DNA from: Saccostrea echinata
Lineage: Eukaryota
Length of the DNA stretch: 64,000 nucleotides
Direction: 5' to 3'
Assembly: GCF_033153115.1 (NCBI RefSeq)
Contig: NW_026889760.1
Coordinates: 5,022,001-5,086,000 of the forward strand
The notes under the pieces were generated by a model. That model was given only the letters and a program-made list of their open reading frames with translations, was not told where the DNA came from and did no database searches. The translations under genes and the position numbers were made by a program. Positions 12,234 to 63,311 of this stretch are shown piece after piece. Position 1 is the first letter of the stretch. Every line of letters starts with the position of its first letter.

Positions 12234-12269
<36 letters not shown>

Positions 12270-17100: not shown

Positions 17101-17384
17101 GCTATTGATACATCAATCCAAAACCTGTCGCTATATCAAACACACTTTCAAATGAGTAGATCTGCAGTGCAAAGATTTCTCGGTAACATGGGTATAGGTG
17201 GAAGGATTGAAAGTTCCGATTTAAAATTTCCGTTTTCCTATCTCAGGCGACAATTTGATAGTGTTTCTAATGGCAGCAGCGTGCTTGTGTATCAATAAAG
17301 GTGAACGATTATAAGTTAAACTCATAAACATTGAAAACGTTTCATTAAGGATTTTTGTCATTAATATTTGTTGGAATTTAACAG

Positions 17385-17434
17385 GTTTTTAGAAATCTGG
17401 GATATAAGTATACAAAATATGGAAACTGTGCAAG
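17385..17434 (+). CDS. First coding exon (ATG at 17419, METVQ)
   Basis: Acceptor ttaacag| at 17384, then AATATGG start context and ATG GAA ACT GTG CAA G|gtattt. Phase 1 matches the next exon (G|AG = Glu). Confidence 0.65.
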
Positions 17435-20400
17435 GTATTTAAATGTTCATTGTAATATGCTATATAGAAATGTAAATTGTTCATATGTTCTGTAATGTTA
17501 TAAGCTTACATACATGTACAGTAAAACATGTTTATAACAAAGACAGAGTGCCAGGGAAGGAAAATTTTGATAAGTAGTTAAATATCCGTTAAGTTCATAT
17601 TATATTTTAAGGCCAGGCAGAATGAAAATCACTTACCTGTAAGCATCAATTCATTATAAGCTTGTTCGCTATAAGCATGTTTTACTGTATATTCATTATC
17701 ATCATGATAATAGCTAAATTATTTTTTGTGAACATTAATCTTATTTTAATTCATATGCTAGTTTAAAATGCATCTTTTTGGGAGACTTAATATTCATATC
17801 TGTGGGTTGGCACATTTTTCATACTAATTGTTAGGCCATTATTTACACACTGAATTTATGGATTTTTCTGCTTGCTCGATCATAACAAGGAACACATGGT
17901 TGGTGTGACTGGTTGACAGGGGATGCTTACTCCTGCATGGCAGCTGATCCCACCTCGGATGCTTTTAGAGATCGTGTTTGCTCTGCTCCCGATGTGTATA
18001 GTTTCAGTGGAGTTTTGAGCTTGATTACTGTTTGTTATGTCCGTATTTCATGTAAATCTCAAATAATGTGTTTTTCATATATTGCTTACTGATCAGGTCA
18101 GGGAGAATATGAGGGATATGAGATTGCAGAGTCCACAGTTTAGGTAGCAGCAAATCAAGGGTGCATAGAAAATTAAGCGCAACAAATTGATGATGTTGCT
18201 TTTCTCTGGTTGCTGCCCAGCATTTTGCTCTCTATTAATTGCTGTCACCCTCAATTGTTGCTGCCCTCTCTCACTTTTTCAGACTCGTGTTCTCAATCCT
18301 TCAATTGTTGCTCTTGTTTGTTTGCTCAGTTATATTTTTTCCCTAGTGTTTTCACTCCTGTATCTTAGGGATGAGGAAGAAAGTGGCCATATCAATACAC
18401 TATTGTATGTTCATATGGCTTGATACTGTTTCAGTACAATAGTATGATGCAGTAATGTTCAGTACATGTATTTTCAAATATTTACCCCTTTAAGTGATTA
18501 TTTTTTGAGGACAAATCCTTATTAATAAATACTTCCTAGGGCTGTGTATTGAGCAGAATTTTTTGATGCTACATGATATGATACAAAATTTTATAAAGCG
18601 ACATGCGATATATTGGATTCTTTAACAAGTCTATCAAAAAAATTCTTCTAAATCATTTAATGCATAAAGTTGATAAAAACTGAGTGTTTTATATGTTTAT
18701 GTTTTATAACCAAATTCGAAGTTCTTGTCTCACTATCATTACAAATTACACTTCAAATTCAAACTTTTAACGACTGTAAAACTAGCATGTTAAAATATAG
18801 TTGTCCATGTATTTTGTAGTAATTATATAAGATGTGCTATCTCCTTTAAATATTATCTTTGGTAATTGAAATTCCCAACTTTTTCACAGAATTATAAGGA
18901 AAACTGCCTGTCTGATACGTATTGTAAGTTATATTTTGGATATGATACATTCTGGAATATCAATACGTATCGATATATTGACAAAAGTCTGGTGTAAATT
19001 TTTTGCTTTATCAGAGAAAAATAAGAAAAATCATGCCTCATGCCTTCCTGATAATTAAACGTTTAATTTTTTGGGAAAATGCTTTTGTATTTAGATCCCT
19101 GTAGGTATTCACACACAAGTGTTTGAACATCAAAAAGATCTTCATATTTACTAGAGGTTTTAGCCAAATAATCATGTATCATCAATAAATATCAGATACC
19201 TGATCTGCAATGTTCTTAAAGAAATATTCAGACAACTATAGCTACATGTATATATTTTGTAGTATCAAAGAGCTACACTTATACTAAGTAACTCAGCTTT
19301 CAGCATGTTCAAAAACAGTTGAACTTCGGTATCTCGAACACGGATATCTCAAACACCATGGATATTTCAAAGTGATTTTGAAGTCCCACCTGCTTATTTC
19401 TTAAGTATTTTACCCTGGATATTTCGAATCCTCGGTTATCTCGAAGTATTTTCTCGTTTCCTTCAAGTTCGAGATAACGAGGTTTTACTGTATATTAACT
19501 GGACAGGTGCATTTTAAACACTTACAGGCTATAAATCTAACCAGTAATGATATAATCCATCAAAATGTCATGTTGTTATTTGTTTAGTATAAACTTGCAC
19601 TTAACTTGTAATAATGCAGATATTGCAAGAAAGTGTTCTATTTACTGTAGAATCTATAGAACATATATCATTATGAGAGCAAAATTCAGCAGTTTGATAG
19701 CGACGTCATCTTTTCAAGATATCAGCACAAGTTACCACGTTTTGCAGTATTGATTTAAGGCCAATATTATAGCTGCTATAGCTTCCTTTGAAATGCATAA
19801 TCAGTTAAAAGCTAGTTTTAAGTGCACATAAAAATTGAAATCACATAGAATGCCATTTTTACCCTAGCATGTATGCGTAGAGAAAACTGATTATAAGTAT
19901 TTAGTTAATAGTTGGGTTACCAAGAGGTTCATTTGTTTTGTTGACATTTTGCTTTATCTACATTTTAGGTATTTATTTCATGATAACAGAAAACACTTCA
20001 AGTGTATATAATTTATCTAATTGTATGCCCAAAATAAAATGTTTACTTTCACTTCAGTGAAATCCTTTGATGGCTACCAAACAATTGTTTAACTGTTGAG
20101 TTCCCTACACTTTAAACTCAGCTCTCTCTCAAAGAATATAAATTTGCTTATATCTATTAGTCATAGCAACAATGTTAAAACTTTACTGAATAGTCAGACA
20201 ATTGCTGCATCCCCCTTTTTTTAATCATGTTACAAATGAACATTGATGTAGTCTGGTTGATTAATAATTACTCTACTAGATTGCAACGTATAGTTGCTCA
20301 TGATGTAGAGTTTGAATGATAATCCCTCAAAAATGTAAATTTGAATATATGTGGATTTCAGATGTATAGAATACTGCTTGAATAGGACACTACAAGTAGT

Positions 20401-23400
20401 ACTGTACTTTGCTTTAACTAATTTAAAATGTAGGTTGGTGGCAATTGTAGAATTAGCTAATAAACCTGTAATAATTTTTCATATTCAAAATTTTCAGTTA
20501 GAGAGGAAAATAGAAAACTTTTGAATTTGTAAATTTTCCTTTTCTTTCGAAAGTTGAAGCAAAAGTTATTCAAGCACTGAAATTAGCGAGGCAATGAAAC
20601 CAGTTTTAGAGGACTTCATATTAAAATCAATGTCAATTTAAAAGTTTTGCTGAAATTCAAATTTATAAAATTGAGATGAGAAAGAGTTTACAATTGTATG
20701 ATCTATATTTTGTAGAGGAACCAGAAGAGACCCCTCCAACAAAAGTTGAGACTGGGACTAGTCCCATAAGACAAGAGGAGGAGGGTTCTACAAAAGTTGA
20801 AGCAGGGACCAACCCCCCAGACCAGGAACAGGAGGGACCAGCAAGAGTGGACACAGGGACTGACCCCCTTGAGCAAGTAGAGGAGGGTCCTTCCCAATCA
20901 ACCATGGAGGAACAGGCTAGTAAGCCAACAGACCTCAGTCAGAGGGGCTCCCGGAATCTGACACAGATAGATGGGGAGGAAGTGGATACCAGTAAAATGA
21001 AATATGTTGGTTAGTTAATGAAGTTTTTGTGTTTGACAGCATCATTTTATTTTCAGAAAAGTTTTTGCAATCCTCAAATTATTGTAGAGGTGGAAATGTA
21101 TAATCTTGTGAATCTGCCAGATTTTCTTCTAGAACAATGAAAAATATCAAGAACGGGATTACACTTTATTAAGCATCAACTGATTTGAATGAATTTTTAT
21201 AGCAAAATGTAAAAAGTAAAATGGAGAAATGCTGCTTTTTTACCTATTAGTAAAATGAAAGACATGTTTTGATTTTTATTTCAACAATAGAGGGAGTTCA
21301 ATGTGCTAGGGTGGATGTCATGGATACAGGGTTTGCAGTGCCAGAGGTCATCATTATGGAAGGTCAAGGAGTTTTGTTTGAAAAGGGAGGCAGAAAGACC
21401 CTGGAGATTGTTCAGGTTATAATTATTTCCACAAATTTAAATTATTTCGTTATTCTTTTTTTTTTTACAAGACCCTCTAAAATTTGCCATGAGATACTTT
21501 ACTGTTACATGTATTCATAAAGTCTGTGACTGATTTGGTTACCTAGGTGATCCATGATGGTGACAACCTAAGACCTGTGATTGGTGGATTTGGTTCCAAA
21601 GATGCCAAGGTCAAGGACAAAGATGATAACTATATACAACAATTCAACTTAGAAGGAGAATATAAATTTGCAGTGTAAGCTGAAGATAAAAGTCGCACTG
21701 TGATCTAGTTATAAACTAGCATTTTGAGAATTGAGGGTTCCATTCTGTGTACAACTTAATATTCATGTTTTCAGTGGGATCCATTCTGTGTACTCTACAA
21801 GTTAATGTTTTCAGCTTAGTTTTCAAAGTTTCTTTCTCTTTTAGGTCTAAGATACGTTGTACACCTCTGACTGTGATTGTAAGACGACGTCTGCCGTTGA
21901 GGGCAGGAGTGACAGACGATGGTTTTAACCCCCAGATCATTGCTGTTGACCAGGGGGACACGGTTGAGTGGTCATGGAAGGACTGTACTGTGCCCCACTC
22001 CGTACAGGAAGTGAATTATCTGTTTGACAAAGGAGTGTTTGTCAAAAGTCAGTGGGCAGATGGGGCAAGGTATGTGTTTTATGTATGAAGAAAATCTGTA
22101 AAGAATATACTTACAGTAAAACATGGTTTTGGCAAAGTGTCAGGTATTAAACAACTTGATTCATAATAAATGTAATTTGTTGTATATCTGTTAAATGCAT
22201 ATATAGTACTGGTATGTTTAAAACCTACAGGGAATATAAATCACTTTGCTGTAAGCATGAATTCATTATATTTCCATTGTTTCCAGTTTTATTGTAGTTA
22301 TTTATGATGAAAATTTCATTCTCAAAGACCAGTTTCTTTTGAAATTCTGATATAATTGTTAAAGACCTTTATCATATACTAAGTAGTAAATACACCGATT
22401 CTGCACTTTGCAATATGGGTGACGTCACAATACCCCATGTCAAGGACCGGTCCAAAAATCCATATCACGTGTAGGGTTGGATACCGGTACTCGGTACCAA
22501 AACCATACCGAATAGTTACTTCAAAAATACCGGTAAAATACCATTTCATTTAATATCGGTACTAATAACGGTACTATTTCTTAATCTTAGAAACATTTTA
22601 ATACATTCAAAATGATTTAAAACTCGCTAAAATAGAATTCTCTGCACATTGAAAGGGTAGGCTAATTAACGAAATGGATGCTTAGTATGACTATACGACA
22701 CTTGCTTTCGACTGCCAATATTCGAGGTAAATCAGTATGTATATCTCTTTTATTAAGATTAATCGTGTTTAACTTAATTAATAAAAACTGATAATAAATG
22801 TAAATTAAAAAGGCAAAATGTCGCAATAATATGATGTGCATTTCTATCCATCTTCTAATGTCTCGTTGTTTAGTGTGACCAAACAAAATGGGTCCTAGCA
22901 ACCATGGAAGTTGTGTATACTTGTGATTATGTATCTATTCAAGTTAATTTGTTTGAGATTTAATTTATTTGTTTTGTTGGTCATTTATTAAAAGGTTGAA
23001 ATATAAACATAGTTTATAAGCTCATTTTAGGTTATAACATTGAAAGGTTGATGATTGGTGAAAGCATATTTGTTATGAAATGAACCCTTATTCTCATTCA
23101 TCAAGGTATAGTACCATATCGTTAAAAATACCTCATCGTTTCAAAAATACTGGTATGGTATCGTACTGTTTCATTCTTAACGGTATCCAACCCTAATCGC
23201 GTGTCGGACCAGCGTGCAAAAATCCATATCAAACTGGAAGTAACGTTTGTATAAAATTTAAAAGTTAATTAACTTGATTTTATTTCAATATACATGTAAA
23301 ATAATTCTTTATGAACATTTGTGGACTAATTTGTTTTGAAAGATGTATTATTGGCGCTATTAGATTTTAAAGAAAAGGGTCATAGACATGCAGGAAACAT

Positions 23401-26400
23401 TCTTCAATGACTTTATGTTAACTCGCATATTAAGTATTTTAAATATATGATAAATAGAATACTACACACTGAAATCCATATCATATGTCATATCAGCCCT
23501 CAGGCCCCATATCAGCCCTCGGGCTGATATGGGGCCACTCGGGCTGATATGACACATGATATGGATCTTAGTATGTAATATTCTCTATATATTAAACTTA
23601 TTAAAGGTATCACTGTACACAGAAATTTCCTTCTAGTTTAATCAACTACATGTATTTATGATTTAAGACATGTAAATCTTTTAATCATGATTATCTTTTT
23701 TCAGTAATGTTGTAAGAACAATCACAGGACACTTCTCAAAAAAATTTCCGTAAGTCTGATTTACATTGTATATATATATATAACGACTTTATTATTAACT
23801 TTTTAGTAGAGGTAATAATTGTACATGGTGCATTTTGAATAGGAGAAATTATGCATCAAAAAAATTTACAAGAAAACATTTTTCTTTTTATCAGGCGTCC
23901 AGGAATATACTTTTTTCAGACAGAGAGTTCCGAGCTTCATAAACAACATTTCTGTGTTGTGAGAGTCCGGCAAAGCATCAGGTATTAAAGAGAGTTATCT
24001 ATTGAGAAAGAATTAACATTAAGGAATGTTTCCTAAGTGGATCTTCATGATAGTTAATAACAATTTCAATTTAATATTCCTTTTGTGTGCCTAGTTACCT
24101 AAATGTATGGCAGTACGTGCCATATGCCATTTCTTGGAAGTACAGGATGATATTGAAAAGTGCTCTTCTTAAATATAGTCTAGTTTTAAAGGTTTGCCTA
24201 TTAAAAAGTACGGGAAATATTAACATTAAGTTCCCTAACTTTTGCTTAAGACTTGACGATGTTGAATTGCTTTACTGTAAATACATTTGATGACCGTAGG
24301 GAGTACAAAGTGGAGATATCAGACCGTGCCTACCACCCCCCTGTGTTACTGATAGAGACAGGGGACAGAGTCTGGTGGTACTGGGACAAATTCAAGGTAG
24401 AGATTTGAACTCTCAAAGTTTTTAAAACTCTGAGCAAATTTATTAAAAATTATAAAAAAAGAAGTTTTAGATAAATAAATAAAAGCAGTACCGGTAGCTT
24501 TTGTTTTATTTTGTATTAATTTAAGAGGACATGAATAGACAGAGGTCAGATTTTTAAAAAAATAATTGCTTTTAAAAAAGAGGCCATCATTATTCTAGAT
24601 TATACAATTTTAGGTAATAACCCTGACATTTTTTTTGTGTGTTCACAGTGCAAGAAACACCATTGTGTATATCAGATAGAGGCCCCGACCTTGAACCAGG
24701 ATGATGAGGAACCATATCAACCGGTTCAGAATGGCTTCAGGTGGAGTCAACCAAGGTAGGGGAGATAATCAATTCTCCTGTTAGTTTATTTATTTAAACA
24801 TAACCACTGGTTTTCATTGAATTGTTATGTTATATGATGGTAAACTGGGTGCTATCTGGACTTCTATATAGTTTACTGTTAAATATTGCCACTTCCTAAA
24901 TAATTAGACCTATTGCAACTGATTCACTTAGCCTATTTTATGTTAAGTTACAGTTTATGTGATATAGCTTTGTTAAATTTGTGCCATATAAAATTTACTA
25001 ACTATTGAAGGTGACAACGAAAAAAAAATATTTGAAAGGGGGGTCCACAATATGTCACAAGAGAAAAGACTTATCAATAAGTTGATAAATGAAGTGGTTT
25101 GATTTTTGCTCACAAACAGGAGGCATGTATTAAGTGATTGACATAATCTGTTTTACAGTAAGCAGGGTCTGCTGTCTCATGTGTTCACAGAACCTGGAGT
25201 GTTCTATTACTCGGACCAAAACTTCCAGGAGGCAGCTGAGTACATTGGTACTGTGATAGTCAAACCTAAACCAAAGGAACACAGGGTAATGATCAAGGAG
25301 GACGGTTTTGAACCAGGTAACCTCATAGCACAGGACAATACAAATGAAAAGTTATGATTGGTGTAATAAATTTCAGTATCATACTAATCATTTTTTATTT
25401 TTTGCCTTTTAATCTGAACAGATGTAGTACGAATCAGAACAGGAGAGAGAATCTGGTTCTGGTGGAACCCCATTCTGTTTTCAAAGAAAAATATTCCAGT
25501 TTTACTGAGGGAGGTAGAAAAATGTCTGAACCCAGCAACGAAGCGACCTTCCACACCAGAGGATGAATGTAAGTCAGGAAGGTGGTCTTAAACACAGTCT
25601 TAAAATTCCATAAACTGCAAAGTTTCAAAACTGCAATCTCTAAAGCATAATGTACATGTAGATCAATGTATTGCTATATTTGCATTCATTGTGGAGGATA
25701 AATTTACAGTTCAGAACTACAAATAAGTTTTGTTGTAAAACTAACTTTAGTGAATAATAAATCTTATGGAGAAAGGAAAAAATTTAAAGATTGTGGAATT
25801 GCAATAATTAGAAATAAAGAGAACTTTGTTTTTTTATCTGCAGCTAAATACCAGCACCCAGATGAGGAGACTGTAAAACTGATCACAGATGTGGGATTTG
25901 CAACAGTTTTTTATTCCACAACTGGAGTGTACCATTACAGGGTACGGAACTCGACTGTGTGTTCTGTGATAGTCAGCCCAGGAGAAAAGGTCAGTGATGT
26001 TGTAGTTATTTCCCTTGTATATGGACAATGTATAAATTGCAGTTTGCATTATTTGGGTTTTAAAATAGCTTTCATTTGTTTGAAAAAGAAAATTCAAAAT
26101 ATAATATTATCTGGCAAAAGGGAACTTACAGAAATATTACAAGCAAAAAAATTTTGCTTGTTTGGATATAAGTCCTTGAAAATCTTTTTTCATATTTAAA
26201 CATGAAAATTTTTTTCTTGTTTCTGTTTTTCTCAGAATCACACAATCCACCTGACAGACAGCGGTCCAGAACAGAAGGTCATCATGTCGGTCCGACCCAA
26301 TGACCGGGTCTGGTGGGTGTGGCAGAGCACCAAGAAGCAGCATAATGTCATACAGGTGTCCCATCAAGGTGATCCCATCCCTGGGGGATTCTGCAGCGGT

Positions 26401-29400
26401 ATGCCTCGGGACTCACCCTCAGCTTTCGTACACACCTTCGAATTTCCAGGAGTATTTTACTATAAAAGGTAAAATTAGGTTGATTTGTGTGCTAGGTTGT
26501 AGGTAATTGATTTTTCAAGATTTACTAGTTTTTTTTGTTTTGTTTTTTTAAATCAATTTTGAATTTTACCATCTGAGTAAGTTACAACATATGAAATATG
26601 CAAACTTGTAACATAAGAAAATTTTACTTTCTAGTCAAAGTTTACCAAAGATATTTGGAGCAGTGGTTGTGACCACACAGCCAGTGGTTCACGAGGTGGA
26701 AGTAGGACCCATCATACGTCCTGACCCCATCTCTGTCAAAGTTCACGACATTGTGTGCTGGATCTTTAGCAAACCACAAAAAGAGAATGTAGTCGAAATC
26801 ACCCATCCTGACCAAGTTACAGAAGATCTACAGTGTGAAGAAGTCAGTGCAAGGTCAGTTTTTATTGTCTGTCTGTCTAGCTGTACATCTGTCTGCTTTG
26901 TATGTCTGTCTGTCTGTATGTCTTTCTCTAAGGCTGTCAGTTTGTCTAGCTGTAAATCTGCTCATGGTCTTACCACTGTCTAACTTTGTAATGGCTTCAC
27001 ATATCACTTAGTGCCATGTAGAGAACTGTCAAAGCATTGCTCATTAAGTTTTTACTGTTTTAATTTTATGATTGATTTATTTTTAGGTCTTGTTTGAGCA
27101 AGGCTATAGACAAAACAGGAGTGATGCATTTCTACAGCAAGTCCTTCAACAAACAAAAGAAAAATGTCGAAAATGTAAGCTTTACAATAGATCTTGCAAA
27201 TTCCACATGAATTGTAATTTGTTTTAATCACAAATATTTTTTTCTTTGACACATGTTTTAATTCACTGAAATATAAAATGTTTACATTTCCAATGTCTTT
27301 GTGTGAGATAAAATTTCAAATAGTAAAAAAAACTTTATTTCTACATAAATCTACTGGTTCATTGATAGGCGTGTTGAAAAAAAATCACGAGCGGGGCGGG
27401 ACGAATAGAGACAGAAGCGGGGGCTTGTAGCATGTGAATTTGCAGAATTAAGAGCATGTACATATAAGGAATAACTGTCAGATTTTGGGGTTTCATGACG
27501 ATGATCAGTCGATTGGCTTGCGTGATAATTTTATGCATAAACGCCTTCGGCGTTTATGCAAATTATCACGCAAGCCACTCGATTGATCACATCATGAAAC
27601 CAAAAAATTAGACAGTTATTCCTTAAGTGCATCCACAAGTGTATATGATGACCACTGTTTCTTGACTTTAAAATTTCTTAGCATATGCATCTATAGTGAA
27701 ATTAAAACTCCATTATTTTTTCACCTATTGAGCTAATTTTTCACAAAATTTATCTACAGTACCAAATTGAAAATACTGTATAAGGCATTATAACAGTATA
27801 ATTATTCTTGATTTGTGAGATGATTTGTTTCTTCAGTACCTGGAGGATGTGAGATTTAGCAGTGTGATCAGTGATGAGCGCTATGACAACACAGTCATCA
27901 AAGTCGACCAGCAGGGATTTCATCCACATTTTGTATATGTACAGAAGGTATGGACAGACTCTATAATTATAGTATTTAAAACTGGTTTAAGACTGTCTTT
28001 TTGATCAAAGTATATATACAGTAAAAATTGCTTATTAGGAATTTCTTGAGATATAAATTTTTAGTTCCTTGTAACCAAAGTACTTAATATCCATATACAG
28101 TAAAACTTGATTATAGCCAAGTTCTAGGAACCTGTGAATTTACTTTGAACACTATTTCCATATTTGGTTATATCCATATAACGAATTAGTTAAAGTATAT
28201 ACATGTATAAAAAATTCGCAATATGCATTTTTTCCTTCAAATGTGACTACCAAATATGTACTGGGTGGTATTAAATACAAAATTTTCCCTAAAGTTTCTA
28301 AAGATTTCTGATGAATTGAATTTCAGATATTAATACTAATGATAAATAATGCCACATAAATATTTGAGTTTTAAGATACCGAAAATTCATTATAAAAGAT
28401 GTAATTTCGTTATTTTTAACCTCTACGGGACACAAAAACAGTTCGCTATATCCAGAAATTTGCTATATCAGAGTTACTTATAATCGTTATATTTTCCTAG
28501 GATTTGTTTAGAATTTTGCGTGGGATAAAAAAAAATTCACTATATCCGTGAATTTGCTATATCCATGTTCATACTAAATGAGTTTCACTGTAAGAACATA
28601 TTATGATATGAGAGATGGGGAATTCTTCTTATCATAACTGAGAATTACTAATATCAGAGTTCCTTATAAGCGAGTTTTACTGTATAGAAACTGACATTTT
28701 ATCAGTTAGTAACTGACTTCAGATTGTCCTTCGAAGTGTTTTAGTCTTTTTAAAGGGAGGTAACTTTTAACAGGCAACAATTTCAGAAGTACAATGAGAA
28801 ATGTTTAAGAATACTTGTAAACTTTGATTCGGTTTTTAATTATTAGGGAGAAAGTGTCAGATGGACCTGGATCAACACGGATGAGGAACACAATATCATC
28901 CATGTCACCTCTCCAGATAGCAAGGTACTAAACACTGGTATTACAAAAGATGTAAAAAAAATTGTAGTGATTCATTATTTAATTTAATGGAATTCTATTC
29001 ATGAAAGATGTAGTTAGAATAGATTTACTTAATTGTTTTGCATTATCCTTTAATCAAGGACCGTTTTGGAAGAATGAACCCTCAAGTGAGTCCTGTCTGT
29101 GATAATTATTCATGGTCATACTATCATTTATCCTATTATCCACCACTCTTCCAAAGGAAAACCAGTATCTAGCATTAAAATTTATGTAGTATTAACTTTC
29201 ATAAAAATATGTTACCCTACATTGGCCAAGTTTAAGGGAAAATTTCGTATTAGATTAATTCACTGTTTCTTACTGTTATATAATTGTTTAATCTGGTAAT
29301 ATGTATGGTTGCTGGAATTTGAAATAGTCTTGACTGAATCATTTAATACTGAGTCAAATTTTAGCCTTTGCATTTGCTACATGCATATTTTTCTCTGATG

Positions 29401-53400: not shown

Positions 53401-53798
53401 CAGTATTTTCGTCTACTTACCCATACCAAAAATATTAACATTTCCATATATCTTTTCTTTAAATTTTGTACCTTGAGGATGAGTAAACTTTTAGAATATA
53501 CAACTTTTTGTACCTAAAATTGACAGTCATGTTTGAATTTAACTAAAACTTAATTCAAGACTTTGTCATTTTTCAATGTTACTTCTAAACTAAATTGGAC
53601 TGTCACATTTATTGCTTCTTTGTAACTTAAAACTGATTTTTTCAACATGGGCACCTATTTGTGATAATATTTAAATAGAATCATGTTTTTCAATCAGAGA
53701 AAAATGAAAACTCAAACAAGTTCAATAATTAATAACAATTGAAATTATAGTTTTATAGTAATACAATTATATCATGACATTTAGGATGTGTGATTTGT

Positions 53799-53829
<31 letters not shown>

Positions 53830-54296
53830 GGAGTAATAAAAGCCACTTTTTATCCACCATTTCTTTTTCTTTTTTTTTATAATTATTATTCAACTATTTT
53901 TGTTCATTTGATTATTAATTATATTATACTTAAGATTTCAGTTCATTAATGCAAGCATAATGTCTACTGTGTTGGGGGAAGAAAAAAAAGGGGGGGGGGG
54001 GTATCTTGTTAATCAAATGCCAAAAATATATATATAATTATCAATTCAATTCAATTAAATTTTTTATGGCAAATAAAAGATCCATTTTTGATCTTTAAAA
54101 CCCCCCTCTACCCTACAGGGTTCTTAGTAATTTTGTTTTACAGGTTATGAGACAAAGGAGGGTGGGTGTCTTATAAACACAGTATAATTATAAATACCAA
54201 TATTTTGACCATCTGAATTGCCCAGTTTAACAGAAAAAAGTGTATTAAAATCATTAATACCTTGTGTTACAGTCTATTAAATGATATCCAAATTAG

Positions 54297-54342
<46 letters not shown>

Positions 54343-57300
54343 GAAATACAGAAATGTTAGGGATGTTTAAATTTACTTATATAGAGAGTGAGAATTTATT
54401 TATATCCAGTATTCCAGTGATATTTTAAAATAGACTTCGTTTTTCTTTGTATGCAAAACGATGTTGATTTCCAGTGTTCTTCAGTGACACAGGTGTTTGT
54501 ACTAGGTGACCTTTATAGCTTGCAGAAATTTTGGCTCGTGTATCACGTGCAGTTCTTCAATCACGAAGGGCTGATTTGAAGTCTACAGCTCAATCATAAT
54601 AGGTAAATAAACAAAAGAAAAAATAATAAAAATGAAATAAAAACAAGATATTTATGAAATTTGTTTTAAACTATAACTGATAGTAAAGTAGTAGCAGTAA
54701 AGAATAGTGTCACATTTACAATTGATCAGGCTTGAAATTTAATATAAATAATAGCCTTCAAGGTGTTCAAAAGACCTGTCCTTATTGTTTAATTTACCAT
54801 ACACATAGTATGTAAACATGATGTGTATAATTTACAGGGTTCATGTAGTGACACTTCATTTCGATGTTTGGGAATGTACGTAGAGTGCCAGTTACATTAA
54901 GATTTTAGCTGAGGTCTAGTACATAAAGAATTTGTTGTAAATCAATAAATTTAATCAATTTCACATGTAATTTAAAAAAAAAAAGAAGTTATGTGAAATC
55001 AGAATGGCGACCCCGATTATAACACAAAATGGCGTCCAAAATGGCGGTCCCGATTAATTACCCAATTAGGGACGCTATATTTCAAGGAATTCATACTAAT
55101 CGGCTTTTTAATAAAGTTGACGCCATGTAACAGTTGTTAAATATGCATTGTTATAATTTTTTATTGTTTACACGAACTATTTCATGAATAATTTAACAAA
55201 CGTTTTTAAAATCACGTGACTCCTGCGAAGTCTACGATTGGTCAGCGACAGCGCGGATATTTCAGAGACGATTTGAAAATTTGCTGTGATGAAAATTTCA
55301 AGAAGAAATCAGATACTTATTAGTCGGTGAGTCTTTATTTCAGTTTAAATTTTGATGCTGCTTGTTGTAAATGCATTTATCCACTTAGAGAATGCATTAG
55401 AATATGAATATCAAGTGTAGATTTCGCGATATTCTTGGTATTTGTATCGTAGATTTCTGGTTTGTTTTGATTCAAGATGGCAGTGCTACACATGAAGTAA
55501 ATGTACTTAAACATAATCTCTTTGTTTAACATTATGTATCACAAGACTTTTGTAAAAAAAAAAAATGTGTTTTAGAGTCTTTTCTTAAAATATAAAGATT
55601 TGAAATGTGTCAATATCTGGGAACAGTTACTTAGAGTAGCCTCTGCATGAGCATGACGATAATAACAAATGAAATCCAAATGAACTGTGTGAGATAAAAT
55701 TATTGTAATAGGGTCTTTGAAATACAAGATAAAGATCTTTGTTTTAAAAAGGGGGGGGGGTCAAATTTTTTTAATGAATCAAGCAAAATTTACAACCTTT
55801 ATCCAGCATAATAAAACATAATAAATTTTATATTTATATAAGTTGTGCATAAATTTCTGATCATCTAATCCCCAAGCTCTCCACTTCCATACCTGGGGGG
55901 GGGGGGGGGGGGGGGGGTGTTAATATGAGACACATTATCATTTAATTCAGAGTGTAATGTTTCAATAATTCAAACATAGTGTGTGCATGTGTGTTGGTCA
56001 TTATTAATGCCAGATAATTTCATGAACAAACATATTCTTTTTTTTCAACAGAATACTTGTCTCCTGTGGTCATTTAAATTCCAAGCTGGAGGGAAATGCA
56101 TTAAAACTATAACTTTATCAGTAAGTATAAGATCTAATCTGATTTTTGTAAAAAATGAGTAAATGTATAAGAATATAACAAGGCACTGCTCATCAAACTC
56201 CAATGCAAACTATAGGGATTTCATCTACTAAATATGTTTAAAAATATTTCAGCATAAAATGTAACTAAGTAAGTGAAGACAGGGACCTATATACTAGGTC
56301 CCTGGTGAAGAGCAACATAATAATAATTGAACTTTTTCAGAATTGAAAGAAAATGACATGAAACTGAAAGCCGAAATTGCGTAGCATATTCAAATGGAGG
56401 ATCAGTGTTTTTAAAGAGTCCAGATGGAAACCGCAACTGTAAAGCAATGAAGACTAACAAGGTGTGCTGGTAGAAAATTCTGTGATGGATAGGAACTCTA
56501 TAAAGATAATGAAGATTACATGAACTACAATTGAACAATTCATGGGGAAAAAAAAATTGACATGAAATGGAGTATACTTTTGACTTTGTGTATTTAAATT
56601 AACTTATGTATATGCCTAAAAAGGTATGTCTATTTATTTCTTTCATTTTTTCTTATTAAGAAAGTTTAAAATATCATTATCTTGATGTCATTAACCATAT
56701 TAATCTAAATTAATTAAATGTTAGGGATTTGATTAATTAAATATTTGGGATTTCTTAGGTATAGATTGTATTTATAGAGATGACTTTTTTAAAGAAGTGT
56801 TTTTCATATATTTTCATGTACTATCATGCAATAAATTTTTATTTTTTCCATAATTATTATTGTTTAAATCAATTTTTCTTTTACATAGGCCTGCCTCAAA
56901 CGTGCCTATTTGATAGGTACATTATAGGCATACCTTAAGTATACTTTTGGCACAGACTCTTGAGTACCAAATTGGTAGGCATACTTTAGGTAGACTTGTA
57001 GGTACATTTTAGGTATACCTAAAAGGTACTCATCTGAATGTTTGAGGTGTGTACCAATATTGTGCTTTTTTGGTACCTAAACTGTAGGTATACTTTAGGT
57101 ATACTTTTGGCACATTCTTGAATGTTTGAGATGTGTGCCAATATTGTGCTTTTTTGGTACCTAAACTGTAGGCATACTTTAGGTATACTTTTGGCACATT
57201 CTTGATGGTACCTTTTAGGTATATTTATAGGCACATTTTAGGTATGCCTAGAAGGTACCTATCTGATCGTGTGCCAATATTGTGCATTTTTGATACCTAA

Positions 57301-60300
57301 AGTGTGCCTATTAATAAATATAGGTATACTTTAGGTATGCCTATTTTGTATCAATTTGCTACCTATACTTGAACAAGTGGTTCCAAACTTGCATACCTTA
57401 GGCATGCTTTTTTTGTACCTATTTTTACCCAAGATAGGCATGCCTAATCTGTACTTTTTTTTGGTATGGGCGATATCGACATTTCTTTTTAGTGCAGGTA
57501 TCACTTTCACGACACTATTAACTTGAAGAATGCGTGAAAGACAATATATAACAAGCATTATTTGCTTTTCGGAGCTGTCGAGCACATTTTAAACTTGTAC
57601 AAGTTTACTTTAAGGGCAATATGATGGACAAAACAAACACAATATAATTCCATGTTTATGCAGTAGCCTGAAATTTGGTGTGCTAGTTACTATGGACAGA
57701 AATGTATTTGTCCAGGTAATATTGAACCCACTGCACTGTTTAATTAAAGAACAATGCTAGCGAAGCCCTGAAATTGAGAGTTTGAAATAATGTTACAGTA
57801 TTTAATTGTCAGTTTTACATCGTCACCAATGATTTTTTTATAAAACATAAGATGATTTAAAAGCATAACTGAATACAACTAATTTTCTTAAATTCTCAAA
57901 TATTCCTCAATGCACCCTTTATTAATTCATTCATTTCAATAAACAGTACATACCATATTTGCTGTAGACCTATAGGGTCTAGGGAAAAAATAAGATGTTA
58001 TAACAGATTTATCATTAACTGTCTTGATCATTGTTCTTGAAATGTGGTCCTTGGGAGTCATCTCCCTTGATATATTATATTTGTTAACATGAAGCCTTTA
58101 ATTTTTTCATATTGATAAACATTGATTTTTATTGCAGTAGTTTTAGAAAATGGCTAAATTCAACAAAGGTTAACCTTAATAATTACAGGGTGTAAAGAAA
58201 TTCAATTAAAATCAGAACCCTATAGCCTTGAATGTCAAAGACAAATTGAAATTTTACAAAGTCTAAAGCATATATGCCATAGTATTTGACAATTTTTGAC
58301 ACATATATTTGTATGACTTCTGCCAGAAAGGGAATAAAAAAGAAGACAATTAATTCTTGCAAGTTGTATATTTTCCATAGACTCTGGCTGGTATACAAGG
58401 CATGCTCTGTTCAGATAAATATACCATGCTATATGCATACATTGAACATGTTTGGTCAATTAACTGAGTTTAAACAGACAATTATATAATTGTAGCATTA
58501 TTTGTTTCTTCAGAAAATATGTCGTGGCTTTTTTGGCCCCTCTCTATAATGACTTCATTGCAAAATCTCTCAAGACTGTCAACTATAAAGCAAAAGAAAA
58601 ATATTGGGTTTGAATATTTAACCAGCACAAATACAGCGTAATAGTGTCAGATTTTTACATGTACCAGTATTGCCACTTGTATGTAAAGTTGCTAACCATT
58701 TGGTAAGTGCTTTCCTTTTTTGACTGTATAATTGCAATTTGGATTCCATATTGTTTTGCTGAGGCAGTAAATTTCCCTTTGATCCATTTCCCCATTAAGT
58801 TAACACTAAATGGTACATGGCATTATTGTGGACAGATTAATTGTGTATTTGAATTTTTTTCTGATAATCCATTTCCTCTTGGTGGCATGTTAATTTACAT
58901 GTTTAGAATTTTCTGTGTATACCCAACGGTTGTTGTGAATTGTTTTATCTTAAGCCAGTTTGCATTTATTATTAGTCCCTGACTATTTTTAGTCACCAGT
59001 TAACTTTTATTTGAACAAAATAATATGAAGGATGCATCGAAATCAGAAAAATTGATTAGTGTTTTGTTGAAAAGGTATTGAGTGTTCTTTTTTTTCTTTT
59101 ATAAAGATTATATTTTGATTAATAAATGGAGTTTTTTCAAGTATGGAAACCTTAGCAATCAACTGCTTTTGGGCTAAAATTGTTATTCATATCATTAAAA
59201 TTTTCACAGTTGATGGCATCAAAGCACATAATATTTCAGTTAATTTTACTGTCAGTGGATTCATTTTCTTGTTCATTATTCTCACACTGAAGAATATATA
59301 GAATGCATAATTTCAAATTTGAAAAAAATGAACATGAGGATGAAAAACTTTGTCATAGCTGGTAGAATATGCAGATGTATGTGATTAATCAAAACTTTTA
59401 ATTATGTAATGAATTACTGGGAGAAATGAATTCATCAACAACATTTTAACAAAATGGCAGTTGTGTGAGAGATACAGAAGAAATACTGTTTGTCTCTGTT
59501 ACTTTTATTTCCAGATTCAAAAAAAAATGATTTTAAATTGCATTTACATTTTAGAGTTTCTTACTTTTGATTTTTTTTATAGATGATATTTTTGAACTTA
59601 ACCAATATCTCCATGAGCAAGATAAGCTGAAATTACCTATCCCAGGTGAACCTGATGATCGAATGCTTTGTGTTTTAGTTTTATATTCACTAATATGGAA
59701 GCTTGTTTTGAATGAGCTTTAATTGTTTTCATCATTGTAAACTTATACTTCTTTTAAGGATCAGCTTACATTGTTAATTCAATATGAACAGTTATGAAAT
59801 ATGCTTTATTTTTTATTCATGCTTGTCAATAACTTGCAATTTGCTGCCAAAGGTTGCCAACGGAACTTTGTCATTGGTGAAAATAGTTTTTCTGCATTTT
59901 ATTTGCCATTTTATTCTCTGACCATACATTGACAATTTCAATCATATTTCATCATTGTGTGTGTGTCAAGAATACTTGGATTTTGCCCTAACTTACAAGC
60001 TGCTTGAAGATCTTTTTATCTATCATTTATATTCAGAGAGCACTTGAAGATTTGGTACTGTTTAAGATAAGCGGTTACAGTACTATGATTAATACTTTAT
60101 GTATTTGATGTGTTCTGGGTGTGAGGTTAATGTTTATGAATTTTTGTATATGATGTCCGTGTATTGAAACAAAATGTAATTTGTATTTGCTTAATATAAA
60201 TAACCTTTAATTATTGAAATTGATGGATTGAACTTTAGTTACTTTGTTCAGGACAAGTTGAGGCTTTTTTCATAGTTAATTATAATGTTTTTGATTACCT

Positions 60301-62945
60301 TTTATTTTTAGAGGACAAGCTACATGGCCACTTTGTTCGTCCTGACCATTATGTAGTGACCTGGTGGTGTGGCGATAAAAACGATGTCCAGAGTGAAGAG
60401 ACTAAAGGTAGGAGGAATTCAATTTGATGATTTTTATTAAAAAAAAAAAAATAATAAATAAATAAGTGAACACAACATATGTTGTTAATGTACTGTTTTT
60501 TTGATTTTCAGAGGATCATATTCTGATCACTGGGCTCCATCCAGCAACAACATACACCATAGTCGTTGAGGCGCGTCGTATGGAGAATTACAAGGTCGAA
60601 GGTCAGTATCAGTTAATTCTTGTCGAGAATTTCTTGAATAAGTGAATTTGATTAAAAATCAATCATTTCAAGCAATTACATTCAAAATGATTTTTCAGAA
60701 TTAATATTTTTGTAAATTCAAGTTAATATTATTAAGTAGTAAAGATTTTGATGTATACATGTAAAAAAATTTTTCTGTTTTGAAGGAGAAGAAAATGACA
60801 CCACCAACAAGTTTATCCTAACCGCCCAATCAGAACCTCTGACTCTGAGAACGGCCCGCCCACCTGACCCGCCCAGTAATCTGTCGATAGCTGCCTCAAC
60901 ATGTAATGCCCTCAGACTTGTCTGGGATCCACCTGTAGAACATGGAGTGGAAATAATAGGTGTGTAGATGTTTGAAAATAAATTGCAAAATGCCACCTTT
61001 GCAGACATCAAAACTCAGAAAATTGTGGAACATTCATTTTGTGATTGAAGCATATAATTGAATTATGGGTCTGATAAGAGTCAAAAGTTTAAAAAAAAAA
61101 AAAAAAAAAAAAAAGCCTCAACATAATTTTTTAAGAAACAAGTTTTCTGTCTTTTGTCAATATGGCACATGTTTCAGAAATTGTAATTAAAAAGGCTTTT
61201 GGCAAATAATATGGACATTACGAATAAGAGCAAACAACAAGCTAATCTTTTTTCTACTTAGTACTAGCTAGTAAAAAGTGAATAATTACATGGATATATC
61301 AAATTTTGGACATACTGAGACAATTTCAGCTGCCCTTGAGTAATCGCTATGACCATATTTTACTGTACAATCTAACTGTGACAAAATATATAAGAATTGA
61401 TTTTCTAAATGCACAAGCACATTTTATTTTACAGCTATCCGTATTGATGCCCAGTCTATAAATACCAGTGACCCTCATCATGTGTCAGTAGAAGTACGAC
61501 CAGATGAATGCAAGGCCGACATTGAAGGTCTGCGAGAAAAGACAGACTATGTTCTACGAGTCACAGCAGTTACTGATGAATATTTCGACAGACTTCCAGA
61601 GAGGCACAAGCTAAAGAAAGTCCGTTCCATTCCCAGAGACAGAATGGTTGCTGCTGATGATTCAATATGGCTGCCAAACACGTACACCATGGCCAAAACT
61701 GCTGGCACAGAGCCCCCGGCTAATCTGAAGATTGTTGAGTCTTCAACTTCAGGACTTTCAGTGACCTGGCTTTTACCAATTGTGTATGGATCTAATAAGT
61801 TAATTGGACAAGTTCTGAGATGGTCTGATGTGAAAAATTCCAAGAAAGGTGATAGTGAATGGTATGTGGCCAGCCATATCAACCTTGACCCTGCAGATAA
61901 TAATGTGACCATTGAAGACCTGACCCCTGGGGCACAATATAAGATTGTAGTAGAAGCAGTGGTCAGCATCAAAACCTCCCTAGAATCTGCTGAAAACGAC
62001 AAAGATATACAACGATACCGCAGAACTGCCAACGTGATGTCAAAACCTTTGTTCACAAGAACCAGGGCTCCAACAGAGCCCCCCAGGGTGTACATTACAG
62101 GTTACACCCAAACCACTGCCCAGCTGTATTGGGAAAAACCGCCCCTGGTGTCGGTCATTGGCAAGGAGAATGATGGACGACCTAAATATCTTAGGAGGTA
62201 CTTAGAGGGGTATAAACTGGAAATTAATGACAGGCTTCATTCCTGTTTGGGACCCAATGCCCAGAGTTGTCAGCTGACCAAGTGTAAACCAGGCAAAAAG
62301 TACCGAGTGGTGCTGGTGGCACTGACTTGTACTGACCAAGGAAAGAAAGACCGCAAGAAGAAGGTACTGGTACAATTTGTACAGTATTGTCCAGAATCAA
62401 GATTGCTTTCAATGGAAAATAATTATTTTAGAAATTGAATCAATTTCCAGATAAAAATTGATCTGCATTTAGTGTATTTAGTAAACTACAGGTATCAGGG
62501 TAATTGTATTTGAAAGAGATAATAAAAAAAGTGATAGAACACTGTCTGGTACATTTAAATTTTTTATTTGAATAGAATTGATGCTCTGTGTGTGATACAA
62601 TGTAATGTATTGATTTTCTATCTTGTGTTAAATTAGGAAATGATGAATTGCTGAAATGTCTCTTTGACAGTATTTAATGCAGCTTAAAAAATCCCCCCTC
62701 CAAAAAAAAATATATATTAAAAGATCAACATTGATTGATTTCTTCTCTAGTACAAGGGAGTATACAGAAATGTCAGTCTCCAGACAGTAGACTACTCGGC
62801 TCTACTCCAGGATGAGGATAACCTTGACCCTTCACCTTCAGAACCTCTGGAAGTTGTCCTCCCCAGGGACCAAGATGGTAAGTTGTTGGCTTAAACAATC
62901 TCTCTCAGTAAAAGTTTCATACCATACTGATTACTATGAGAAGTT

Positions 62946-62991
<46 letters not shown>

Positions 62992-63311
62992 ATTATGCCT
63001 TGTTGTAGAAGCCTTTTTGATGTGCAACACTTAGAAACCACAATAAAATACCCTCAGACAAAAAAATGTACAATTGTCCTTCCAGGTTACATCAAGAGTT
63101 TAGAGTGCACATTCAAGCATGATGAGGATAGAGATAACAGTACATTTGGTGACATTGAACTTCGCTGGGAAACACAAGGGGAGAGAAGTGATGTCATCAC
63201 TCACGTCAAACAGTTTAACGTTATCTGGTCCAACACTGAGGAGAGACAGGTCCAGACAAGAGTTGTCACTCCTGATGCCAGGAAAACTCTGATACCGGTC
63301 ACAAGGTTAAA
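17419..63311 (+). CDS. Giant multi-exon uncharacterised protein (cupredoxin-like x7, CHB_HEX_C/Fn3-associated, FN3 x2, disordered region, FN3 x9 or more); 3' end beyond window
   Basis: 47 coding exons with GT-AG boundaries and matching phases join into one frame (9,368 nt): 17419-17434, 20716-21009, 21291-21415, 21547-21674, 21845-22069, 23705-23749, 23895-23981, 24300-24396, 24649-24755, 25159-25316, 25422-25568, 25844-25989, 26236-26468, 26635-26853, 27087-27174, 27837-27947, 28847-28924, 29929-30085, 31377-31534, 31829-31935, 32520-32619, 32744-32872, 33175-33327, 33988-34152, 36089-36185, 37477-37641, 38520-38600, 40165-40218, 40415-42307, 42796-42807, 43643-44217, 44353-44549, 44655-44777, 44929-45079, 45384-45522, 45859-46072, 46795-46915, 47260-47457, 47788-47983, 48435-48530, 49934-50074, 60312-60407, 60512-60601, 60786-60959, 61435-62363, 62751-62877, 63086-63311. 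Many coincide with ORF-track fragments. Exons 38520, 42796 and 48435 are the least certain. Confidence 0.88.
17519..17687. mobile_element. pogo/Tigger-like MITE (TA target duplication)
   Basis: ta|CAGTAAAACATGTTTATA ... TATAAGCATGTTTTACTG|ta; a more decayed relative starts near 22114. Confidence 0.75.
17850..18050 (+). repeat. Fragment of a common bivalve interspersed repeat
   Basis: GGTGTGACTGGTTGACAGGGGATGCTTACTCCT..CTGATCCCACCTC resembles a frequent oyster repeat end (recalled, family not assigned). Confidence 0.45.
19316..19490. mobile_element. pogo-like MITE
   Basis: CAGTTGAACTTCGGTATCTCGAAC ... GTTCGAGATAACGAGGTTTTACTG|ta; degraded relative at about 31978-32128. Confidence 0.7.
20716..21009 (+). 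CDS. Acidic N-terminal exon with three 17-aa repeats
   Basis: tttgtag| acceptor; TKVETGTSPIRQEEEG / TKVEAGTNPPDQEQEG / ARVDTGTDPLEQVEEG; donor G|gttagt (an alternative phase-1 donor follows 20991). Confidence 0.8.
21291..30085 (+). CDS. 16 exons encoding seven tandem cupredoxin/plastocyanin-like beta-sandwich domains
   Basis: Recurrent plastocyanin-like pattern F-x-P...G-D-x-V-x-W-x-W...H-N-V...F-x-x-P-G-x-Y/F-x-Y/F, e.g. GFNPQIIAVDQGDTVEWSW..PHSV..FPRPGIYFF; YHPPVLLIETGDRVWWYW..FTEPGVFYY; VRPNDRVWWVW..QHNV..FEFPGVFYY; GFHPHFVYVQKGESVRWTW..EHNI..SFNSG..YTFDELGSF. Confidence 0.8.
22472..23195. mobile_element. hAT-type MITE with 8-bp target duplication, nested in an older element
   Basis: atcacgtg|TAGGGTTGGATACCG ... 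CGGTATCCAACCCTA|atcgcgtg. Confidence 0.85.
23455..23588. repeat. Long palindrome, probable end of a Crypton-like non-autonomous element (host from about 22360)
   Basis: ..ATCCATATCATATGTCATATCAGCCC..CATATCAGCCC-tc-GGGCTGATATG..GGGCTGATATGACACATGATATGGAT..; the AATCCATATC motif recurs near 22458 and 23221. Confidence 0.6.
27465..27625. repeat. ~160-bp near-perfect palindrome (Crypton-like hairpin element)
   Basis: TAAGGAATAACTGTC..GCATAAACGCC-TTC-GGCGTTTATGC..GACAGTTATTCCTTA. Confidence 0.8.
28019..28682. mobile_element. Two nested pogo-like MITEs (inner 28098-28590)
   Basis: Outer ta|CAGTAAAAATTGCTTAT..ATAAGCGAGTTTTACTG|ta; inner ta|CAGTAAAACTTG..GAGTTTCACTG|ta. Confidence 0.7.
31377..31935 (+). 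CDS. Two exons encoding a chitobiase/beta-hexosaminidase C-terminal-like (CHB_HEX_C_1 / Fn3-associated) domain
   Basis: Signature IELVCETLGSKIFYTTDGSPP...LYNPEKGVIL...IRAMAVKEGLLNSSI. Confidence 0.8.
32520..37641 (+). CDS. Acidic linker plus first two fibronectin type III-like domains (6 exons)
   Basis: MEVFWEEP..IKGYQIFLNG..LNITGLAGNRIYEVYVEV and LVVVWMS..PIKGYLVFLND..GCELNKEHRIYVVAL..SNVIEV match FN3 strand patterns. Confidence 0.8.
33648..33861. mobile_element. Degenerate PIF/Harbinger-like MITE
   Basis: GGGCTCCATTTTACAA ... TTGTAAAAGGCCCC imperfect TIRs. Confidence 0.4.
38520..38600 (+). CDS. Probable 81-nt cassette exon (phase 1-1)
   Basis: cttcag| ... G|gtaaat; open in the gene frame (AKRHHIETNNVPPLTTSYQYTSSKQPT); TGCATG downstream at 38725. 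Confidence 0.55.
40165..40218 (+). CDS. 54-nt exon (phase 1-1)
   Basis: Strong pyrimidine tract then tttcag|, reads DRRSGAPAVVEVEDPRYR, donor G|gtaaat. Confidence 0.7.
40415..42307 (+). CDS. 1,893-nt exon encoding a low-complexity Q/S/R/H-rich disordered segment
   Basis: 638-codon ORF 40417-42333; acceptor aatag| at 40414, donor G|gtagag at 42308; length divisible by 3, phase 1-1. Confidence 0.85.
42796..42807 (+). CDS. Candidate 12-nt microexon (ESSD)
   Basis: atttcag|AATCCTCTGATG|gtaagt; consensus donor; frame-preserving phase 1-1. Confidence 0.45.
43643..44217 (+). CDS. Ser/Glu/Thr-rich disordered exon
   Basis: 206-aa ORF; ttttgcag| ... GAG|gtaaat; SESETESET repeats and a KGTQT motif. 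Confidence 0.85.
44353..50074 (+). CDS. Ten exons encoding tandem FN3 domains
   Basis: LIVEWY..YIVNI..NIRGLYPDNTYRVFVVA; TTVQWDPP..LLGYKIYVDN..VINDLVPG; VLVAWDKP..ITSYRIYVND..VITGLNPEESYDVKVK; IRVTWLAP..ISGYRLLKNG. Confidence 0.85.
46098..46524. mobile_element. MITE with perfect 14-bp TIR and TA flanks
   Basis: ta|CCAGACCTGTTTAC ... GTAAACAGGTCTGG|ta. Confidence 0.8.
48527..48945 (+). repeat. Diverged tandem repeat (units about 60-150 bp) re-copying the exon 5' splice site
   Basis: GAGG|GTAACTAACTAGAT-like motif with GT at 48531, 48591, 48664, 48819 and 48922. Confidence 0.8.
54301..54339. repeat. (TC)n microsatellite
   Basis: Direct observation; similar tracts at 62951-62987 and (GA)n at 1565-1585. 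Confidence 0.95.
56280..56304. mobile_element. 25-bp P-like terminal-repeat remnant (probable excision footprint)
   Basis: gtgaaga|CAGGGACCTATATACTAGGTCCCTG|gtgaaga. Confidence 0.8.
60312..63311 (+). CDS. Six exons encoding further FN3 domains; gene continues past window end
   Basis: ILITGLHPATTYTIVVEA; PPDPPSNLSI..LRLVWDPP; IEGLREKTDYVLRVTA; PPANLKIV..LSVTW..IEDLTPGAQYKIVVEA; LYWEKP..LEGYKLEIN; includes the 318-aa ORF. Confidence 0.88.

Follow-up and report, generated by a model that had tools for sequence, protein, structure and literature searches.

The 64,000-nucleotide stretch of the Saccostrea echinata genome analyzed here (contig NW_026889760.1, positions 5,022,001 to 5,086,000 of the forward strand; hereafter, the window) contains most of a gene for a giant protein that consists of seven copper-less cupredoxin folds, a CHB_HEX_C domain, 16 fibronectin type III (FN3) units, a thioredoxin fold with a CxxS active site, and a basic tail with RPxS motifs. 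The protein is, very probably, a cytoplasmic scaffold of some kind. The explanation that we tentatively favor, at close to an even call, is that it is a membrane-tethered scaffold that resides in motile cilia or at their base (a ciliary or basal-body site). All coordinates below are those of the window, or of its downstream extension where so indicated, and all parts of the gene lie on the forward (+) strand.

Gene model

Within the window, the coding chain runs from 17419 to 63311 and comprises 47 exons without stop codons, with all 46 introns of the GT-AG type. The encoded product is 2,512 amino acids (aa) long, or 3,143 aa if an optional 631-aa exon (40415-42307) is included, which bears out the continuous spliced frame of more than 3,100 aa claimed in a preliminary description of this DNA made from the sequence alone. 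The complete gene has 62 coding exons, again joined exclusively by GT-AG introns; the 15 exons beyond the window end encode the C-terminal 950 aa and lead to the only stop codon, located about 9.5 kb downstream of the window (extended coordinate 73543). The whole protein comes to 3,465 aa without the optional exon and 4,096 aa with it. The exon chain was built with homologous proteins as guides, and exon phases are compatible at every intron. The orthologs from two other oysters, C. gigas (LOC105321045) and O. edulis (LOC125654190), align with the gene model over its whole length, at 88% and 90% identity, respectively.

RNA-like contigs from one sample (X1 and X2, classed as RNA by a program's guess) exactly support at least 13 of the 46 in-window introns, with at least four joints in the cupredoxin-repeat region and at least 11 across FN3 units 3-11. 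The placement of these contigs left out 17419-20500 and 40450-43500, and most of the 24.8-43.5 kb region has no contig cover and is uninformative for splicing. At least two of the joints skip exons, namely, 47983 to 49934 and 50074 to 60312; in the latter, which spans 10.2 kb, the short side is 30 letters against a bar of 31.

The possibility that two or more genes, one for the cupredoxin half and another for the FN3/thioredoxin half, were fused by gene predictors draws on several database models being partial and several stopping or starting near FN3 unit 7, with those of Littorina, Lingula and an old version of Nematostella starting there. In addition, no RNA joint crosses the central linker, part of which is outside the contig placement, and the 10-kb joint comes from one contig. 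However, both halves are present together in 26 proteins of 2,961-4,008 aa as well as in the sponge and anemone models, the phases fit at every intron, and the long intron splits a single FN3 unit (unit 7) between strand B, at 50065, and strand C, at 60347. Furthermore, the promoter-like transcript in this intron belongs to a transposon that is missing from the other haplotype (see below). We consider a fusion of separate genes very unlikely; no transcript splitting the locus was seen, in keeping with the single gene of the preliminary description, although RNA does not bridge the linker. A shorter isoform produced from an internal promoter is possible.

The start codon is in a short exon (17419-17434) that is followed by an acidic N-terminal exon (20716-21009), the two together (17419-21009) encoding aa 1-104. 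The O. edulis model has the same first four residues and aligns from residue 1. Upstream, we infer a non-coding first exon within a CpG-rich candidate promoter region (13100-13261), where an AG/GTAAGT donor lies at the end of the CpG-rich stretch; the start of this putative exon is not fixed, and the region is 99% conserved in the second haplotype. Neither a signal peptide nor a membrane span was detected when the model was scanned for these features (highest 19-residue Kyte-Doolittle mean, 1.52), and no signal-peptide exon was found upstream, both in agreement with the preliminary description.

Domain composition of the protein

The seven tandem cupredoxin-fold repeats (21296-30085, exons 3-18, aa ~106-820) all lack the type-1 copper Cys. 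An AlphaFold model of a 725-aa fragment of the Patella ortholog, built from 34 alignment rows (pLDDT 80, pTM 0.77), spans repeats 1-6 and the beginning of repeat 7 and is predicted to adopt the cupredoxin Greek-key fold. The best fold match of this model is 5fc9, a cupredoxin of N. maritimus (Z 14.8, root-mean-square deviation (rmsd) 1.2 Å over 87 residues), with plastocyanins next (Z 11.9); the EfeO and FtrB cupredoxins are also among the fold matches (Z 10.4). These matches cover model residues 160-574, that is, repeats 2-5, and the assignment of repeats 1, 6 and 7 is based on the sequence pattern and Pfam Cupredoxin_1. A search of the ESM Atlas with the cupredoxin array produced no usable match, and a PDB sequence search with the cupredoxin region produced chance matches only.

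With the type-1 ligand spacing taken from plastocyanin, the ligand set His...Cys-x-x-His-x(4)-Met is not found in the repeats. In the alignment column of the ligand Cys, Cys occupies 2 of the 140 cells and none of those of the S. echinata protein, and the second His is retained in at most one of 20 rows per repeat. The first ligand His is kept in repeat 2 (28/34 rows), repeat 3 (19/20), repeat 5 (18/20) and repeat 7 (20/20). In repeat 3, Asp is found at the Cys position in 18 of 20 rows and Glu at the Met position in 14 of 20. Thus, the predicted fold resembles the small blue-copper cupredoxins (5fc9, plastocyanin, amicyanin), with the first His and the following Asn often preserved, whereas the occurrence of seven tandem repeats in a 4,000-aa cytoplasmic protein, without the type-1 Cys and the second His, sets the family apart.

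The retained His residues and the Asp and Glu of repeat 3, along with the presence of EfeO and FtrB among the fold matches, are compatible with a metal or redox sensor in which some of the repeats bind a metal in a non-type-1 manner and the CxxS domain reports the redox state, scaffolding being secondary; the Cys of the latter domain is conserved in 26 of the 28 rows that include the domain and also in the sponge. However, the second His is lost in all repeats, the Asp and Glu of repeat 3 are not conserved in the sponge or the anemone, and the conserved His might be structural, so we deem a sensor function improbable.

Ceruloplasmin and coagulation factors V and VIII, which are the top Foldseek matches, likewise contain multiple cupredoxin domains per chain, but are secreted, and the whole-model TM-score is 0.10-0.12 with an rmsd of about 30 Å, indicating that the domain arrangement is different. 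No conserved multicopper ligands were seen in the family: HxH pairs of the trinuclear cluster are absent among the conserved His positions, no multicopper-oxidase Pfam match was obtained for the family proteins scanned, and hence the signal peptide and HxH motifs characteristic of the multicopper oxidase/ceruloplasmin family are both missing. Export without a classical signal, as a secreted or matrix protein, would be in line with the prevalence of cupredoxin, CHB_HEX_C, FN3 and TlpA-like folds outside cells and with factor VIII, ceruloplasmin and fibronectin being the top fold matches. Nevertheless, the whole-chain matches to these proteins, fibronectin included, have TM-scores of about 0.1, no family model has a signal peptide (the only hydrophobic start is that of a truncated Plakobranchus model), and the myristoylation and kinase motifs are conserved from sponge or anemone to hemichordates. 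We regard such export as extremely improbable.

For the second half of repeat 7, the gene has two exons, A (29929-30085) and B (30137-30296), located about 50 nt apart; as each begins in phase 0 and ends in phase 1, they are mutually exclusive. As a correction to the preliminary description, the two are alternative versions of the same half-repeat. Exon B is used by the C. gigas model P0178, and exon A by P0201 and by O. edulis. The Pinctada model scores higher against exon B. The tandem duplication may be older than the oysters, judging from these comparisons.

The array is followed by a CHB_HEX_C/Fn3_assoc domain (31377-32529, aa ~822-912), for which Pfam PF13290 scores above the cut-off in the window exon as well as in Mytilus, the sponge, the anemone, Intoshia, Ptychodera and Macrostomum. 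All three components of the architecture initially proposed, seven cupredoxin repeats, CHB_HEX_C and FN3, are accordingly present.

The 16 FN3 units, counted by the conserved Trp of strand B, are arranged as two before and 14 after a variable linker, with 11 encoded in the window. Units 1-2 (32744-37641, aa ~953-1140) have this Trp at aa 970 and 1066; units 3-11 occupy 44389-63311; and units 12-16 are encoded, together with a helical hairpin, the CxxS thioredoxin-fold domain and the RPxS tail, at extended coordinates 64780-73543. In the predicted model of the C-terminal region, the hairpin is inserted in the last unit, 16. The linker (37554-44385, aa ~1150-1430) is of low complexity and poorly conserved (5-14% identity to distant orthologs). 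It includes two small exons (38520-38600 and 40165-40218) and a 12-nt micro-exon (42796-42807), the residues encoded by which are present in the C. gigas model. Also in the linker is the optional 631-aa exon (40415-42307), rich in Arg, Ser and His and of phase 1-1, with its acceptor set at the most 5' of several fitting sites. This exon is open in both haplotypes, which differ at 27 synonymous and 28 non-synonymous codons, compared to 27 and 2, respectively, in the large FN3 exon; it matches Mytilus aa 1324-2011 (E 2e-23) and is skipped in both other oyster models. Two further optional exons are found downstream, one of 96 nt (48435-48530) that is included in both oyster models and skipped by the X2 joint from 47983 to 49934, and one of 63 nt inside FN3 unit 7 (59583-59645) that is included in the C. 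gigas but not the O. edulis model and skipped by the X1 joint.

The best PDB sequence match is titin (E 6e-11). Giant beta-sandwich scaffolds, such as titin and the central-apparatus chains in 9ijj and 7sqc, similarly employ long Ig-like arrays as spacers, but the similarity is generic only (whole-model Foldseek TM-score of about 0.1), and no Ig, kinase, ASH or TPR domains were detected in the family.

The strand GY-x-[IV]-[YF]-[VL]-[ND] that had been noticed in several FN3 units occurs five times in the protein, three of these in the window. The comparison to RIM-binding proteins (RIMBP1-3) drawn from it, and with it a presynaptic scaffold that binds channels via FN3 units, finds little support. 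Like the present family, these proteins contain cytoplasmic FN3 units; Pfam Ig_RIMBP2 scores above the cut-off for whole family proteins (36-71 bits), and, in the part of a C. gigas gonad single-nucleus table that was accessible (PMC10987912, supplement 3), male cluster 8, for which the ortholog is listed, also includes two RIMBP2-annotated genes. However, the Ig_RIMBP2 score is a sum of weak FN3 matches, and generic fn3 scores are at least about three times higher. A family profile places RIM-BP 35th among 85 PDB sequences, after titin and fibronectin. The RIM-BP hallmark, three SH3 domains around three FN3 units, is lacking, with SH3 in none of the 10 family proteins scanned and 16 FN3 units instead of three. 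The true RIM-BP gene, with three SH3 exons and an Ig_RIMBP2 exon scoring 89 bits on its own, is found in the same genome on contigs C54 (32.67-32.69 Mb) and C16, and the present locus is absent from the 11 Ig_RIMBP2 matches. Finally, the gene occurs in a sponge and, in the same part of the table, is not listed for nerve-like clusters. A RIM-BP-like role is very unlikely.

The C-terminal domain is predicted to adopt a TlpA/ResA-like thioredoxin fold (SdbA, 5um7: Z 14.6, rmsd 2.5 Å, 140 residues), with a conserved G-V-P-T loop as the cis-Pro loop. Almost every row has C-x-x-S as the active site and two have C-x-x-A, whereas CxxC occurs in none. The predicted fold is shared with TlpA/ResA/DsbE-type proteins and with eukaryotic proteins that combine FN3 and Thioredoxin_8, and short FN3-thioredoxin proteins are the Atlas look-alikes (0.91-0.92; a lead only). 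Unlike the TlpA/ResA/DsbE types, the family carries the domain as the terminal part of a giant scaffold and has CxxS in place of CxxC.

Family distribution and a putative ciliary role

The family was searched for among targets of 2,325-7,399 aa, the query being the first 1,096 aa of the Mytilus ortholog (4,228 aa), and this yielded 26 matches among 3,733 candidates, from molluscs, annelids, a nemertean, hemichordates and a crinoid. Cluster look-ups added Nematostella, Intoshia, Saccoglossus, Dimorphilus and the sponge Oscarella, a search at shorter lengths added Macrostomum, and Lingula was found in a separate search. The complete domain order is retained in the sponge (Oscarella XP_065826119) and anemone (Nematostella LOC116611762) models and is the same in the C. 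gigas, O. edulis and Mytilus (LOC143080052) orthologs; identity to the S. echinata protein is 88-90% for the oysters, 58-60% for Mytilus and 27-30% for Nematostella. The relatives are named 'uncharacterized' or 'hypothetical' or bear generic automatic labels, including generic FN labels, and neither a name nor a function is given for any of the ortholog entries in the sources consulted. In line with the preliminary description, these searches revealed no named gene and no characterized protein as a clear ortholog. In one search, 158 proteins passed E 0.001, and names were looked up for 23 match clusters. The named matches included no vertebrate, arthropod or nematode, which is weak evidence because the searches were word-limited or their matches mostly unnamed. 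The named orthologs all come from groups with ciliated epithelia, the reduced parasite Intoshia included.

No publications on the gene identifiers, the accessions or the domain combination were found in the literature searched, which was thin in subscription journals. LOC105321045 was not found in the supplements of PMC12551290 (2 files), PMC9351233 (9 files) and PMC12722230 (11 readable files of 12).

Among 36 family models, an MGxxxS motif is at residue 1 in 22, internal in eight N-terminally extended models, and absent in six (two oysters, Intoshia and three truncated models). In all 22 MGxxxS-start models, residues 3-5 are small or medium, a pattern that, in the accessible part of one study, is that of high-affinity 'UNC119A specific cargo' and is shared by the myristoylated UNC119 cargos cystin, NPHP3 and GNAT1 (PMC6179904). 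This UNC119/ARL3 cargo pattern is not found in S. echinata or the two other oysters, where an acidic start takes the place of MGxxxS. A family-type MGxxxS exon was found neither in the 20 kb preceding the window nor at positions 1-21400. The Met of the oyster acidic exon was considered as a degenerate MGxxxS and rejected, as the alignment gives no support.

The tail is basic and disordered and contains RPx[ST][AGPS] in 25 of 26 sequences, with four such motifs in the S. echinata model. In the last 150 aa of the 26 sequences, 67 occurrences were seen versus 1.6 in shuffles (the relatives not being independent), and the density is 0.97 per 1,000 aa in the family versus 0.10 in 21 unrelated FN3 proteins. 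The wider last position of this motif ([A/G/P/S]) is one that we presume to be acceptable to CDKL5. In the accessible part of the source, RPXSA is described as the motif of CDKL5, which is tied to cilia (PMC6293279).

In the part of the gonad single-nucleus table introduced above, LOC105321045 is a marker of two clusters. Female cluster 13 (1.46, p 1e-19), called follicular by the authors, has DNAH3/5/6, CEP128, ODF2, CEP104 and many cell-cycle genes as co-markers; male cluster 8 (0.51, p 5e-5) has DNAH7, DNAH3, SPAG17, CFAP70, HYDIN and Cdkl5. The gene is not listed there for germline, nerve-like or myoepithelial clusters (PMC10987912). Classifying the two clusters as ciliated, which is our reading, lends modest support to a ciliary site.

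Several observations weigh against such a site. No vertebrate ortholog was named in the 23 match clusters even though vertebrates have motile cilia, and on this evidence, a weak one as an absence, the protein would not belong to the core axoneme. In the same part of the expression table, mitotic and DNA-repair genes predominate in female cluster 13. Moreover, LOC105321045 is missing from the listed markers of female cluster 9, where dynein/HYDIN marking is strongest, and dynein markers recur in numerous clusters (22 of the 49 places seen), which makes the overlap weak. UNC119-type motifs also serve non-ciliary sites, according to the accessible part of PMC6179904, and a myristoylation start is missing from the oyster protein itself. 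In Intoshia, the MG start, the CxxS Cys and the RPxS tail are all absent; an X-box scan of 12000-17500 returned one loose match only; and no localization, binding or phenotype data were found for the family.

The same membrane and microtubule motifs (MGxxxS, RPxS) would also fit a non-ciliary cytoplasmic scaffold, a myristoyl-tethered linker from the cell cortex or junctions to microtubules or centrosomes in dividing or polarized epithelial cells. Such a scaffold would also fit the strongest marker signal being in a cycling cluster (female 13), the absence of the gene among the markers of the most ciliated female cluster (9), and the inclusion of non-ciliary microtubule proteins among CDKL5 substrates (PMC6293279, accessible part). 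Against it, both clusters that list the gene express axonemal dyneins and basal-body genes, as far as the accessible table goes, and the small-residue myristoyl start suits ciliary cargo; we regard this alternative as unlikely, albeit a serious contender. The preliminary description had proposed an uncharacterized intracellular scaffold, cytoskeletal, ciliary or synaptic. The intracellular scaffold agrees with the lack of signal and membrane segments, the myristoylation start of the orthologs and the tail with kinase motifs; of the specific options, the ciliary one is best supported, by the motifs and the weak single-nucleus evidence, and the synaptic one least.

As a membrane-tethered scaffold of cilia, the protein might work as follows. 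Myristoylation of the N-terminal Gly is predicted for most animals, and, with small residues at positions 3-5, the protein would be transported by UNC119 and unloaded at the cilium by ARL3; the oyster version, having no MGxxxS start, would be kept in place by protein partners. The copper-less cupredoxin array, with its predicted fold, could form a compact protein-binding head beside the membrane, and the FN3 array would serve as a spacer, interrupted once by the long, flexible, alternatively spliced linker. The usual internal disulfide cannot form in the CxxS domain, which would act as a monothiol/glutathionylation switch or as a binding module. The basic tail, in which the kinase motif is enriched, would contact microtubules under the control of CDKL5 or a related ciliary kinase. 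In its broadest form, this scenario envisages an animal-wide membrane-to-microtubule linker of motile cilia that makes ciliary structure or beat responsive to redox state (via CxxS) and to CDKL5-type phosphorylation, dates back to the ancestor shared with sponges and was lost in vertebrates and moulting animals, with repeat 3 of the cupredoxin head perhaps binding another metal via His, Asp and Glu. We offer this version as a speculation, and a rather unlikely one in its entirety.

Genomic setting and implications

One other copy of the gene, on contig C84, is colinear with the first and 97-100% alike, and is read as the second haplotype. Between positions 12000 and 46100, the cupredoxin exons of the two haplotypes are almost all 100% identical, and between 46500 and 76000 many FN3/thioredoxin exons are 93-98% identical, which reflects either a divergence step inside the gene or a locally collapsed assembly.

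The long intron harbors a polymorphic 4.45-kb DNA-transposon-like insertion (53018-57470, no strand assigned) that is not part of the gene and is missing from the second haplotype. The insertion is bounded by a terminal inverted repeat of about 41 bp; its 1.67-kb core is present in at least nine copies in the genome (97-100% alike), with eight further full-length copies (97-98%) among the 40 candidates scored. It is non-autonomous and contains subterminal 42- and 84-bp tandem repeats and a CpG-rich promoter-like stretch. The insertion has its own spliced, apparently non-coding transcript (X2 joints 55326 to 56052 and 56120 to 56341), which therefore does not reveal an internal promoter of the gene. 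The CpG-rich stretch (55.0-55.3 kb) was considered as such a promoter, for a short isoform, and rejected, as it sits in a transposon that the other haplotype lacks.

Other intronic repeats, at 22368-23500, 27326-27626 and 46099-46523, show high contig depth in X1/X2, and the one at 46.1-46.5 kb is missing from the second haplotype. Upstream of the gene, there are satellite-like arrays of 166-168-bp repeats (3994-4682 and 8959-12159) and, on the minus strand, a cysteine-rich EGF-like exon of the upstream gene (5812-6033; no Pfam match at E 0.01). Downstream, about 16 kb past the window end, an RD3 family protein is encoded on the plus strand (L004:7047-7700; Pfam PF14473, E 3e-33).

None of the folds is new, and databases already contain the sequences, but the domain combination, the cytoplasmic copper-less cupredoxin array and the conservation from sponges to hemichordates were not found in print in the literature searched. 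Cupredoxin folds in tandem have mainly been described in secreted copper proteins, and a cytoplasmic array devoid of copper would put the fold to a new use. With a mass of 400 kDa, a domain order kept from sponges to hemichordates and no paper found on it in the literature searched, the protein probably belongs to a basic cellular structure overlooked by work centered on vertebrates, flies and worms. If it is ciliary, the protein would be a candidate ancient substrate of CDKL5-type kinases and would provide a handle on what sets apart the ciliated epithelia of invertebrates, such as bivalve gills and larval bands.

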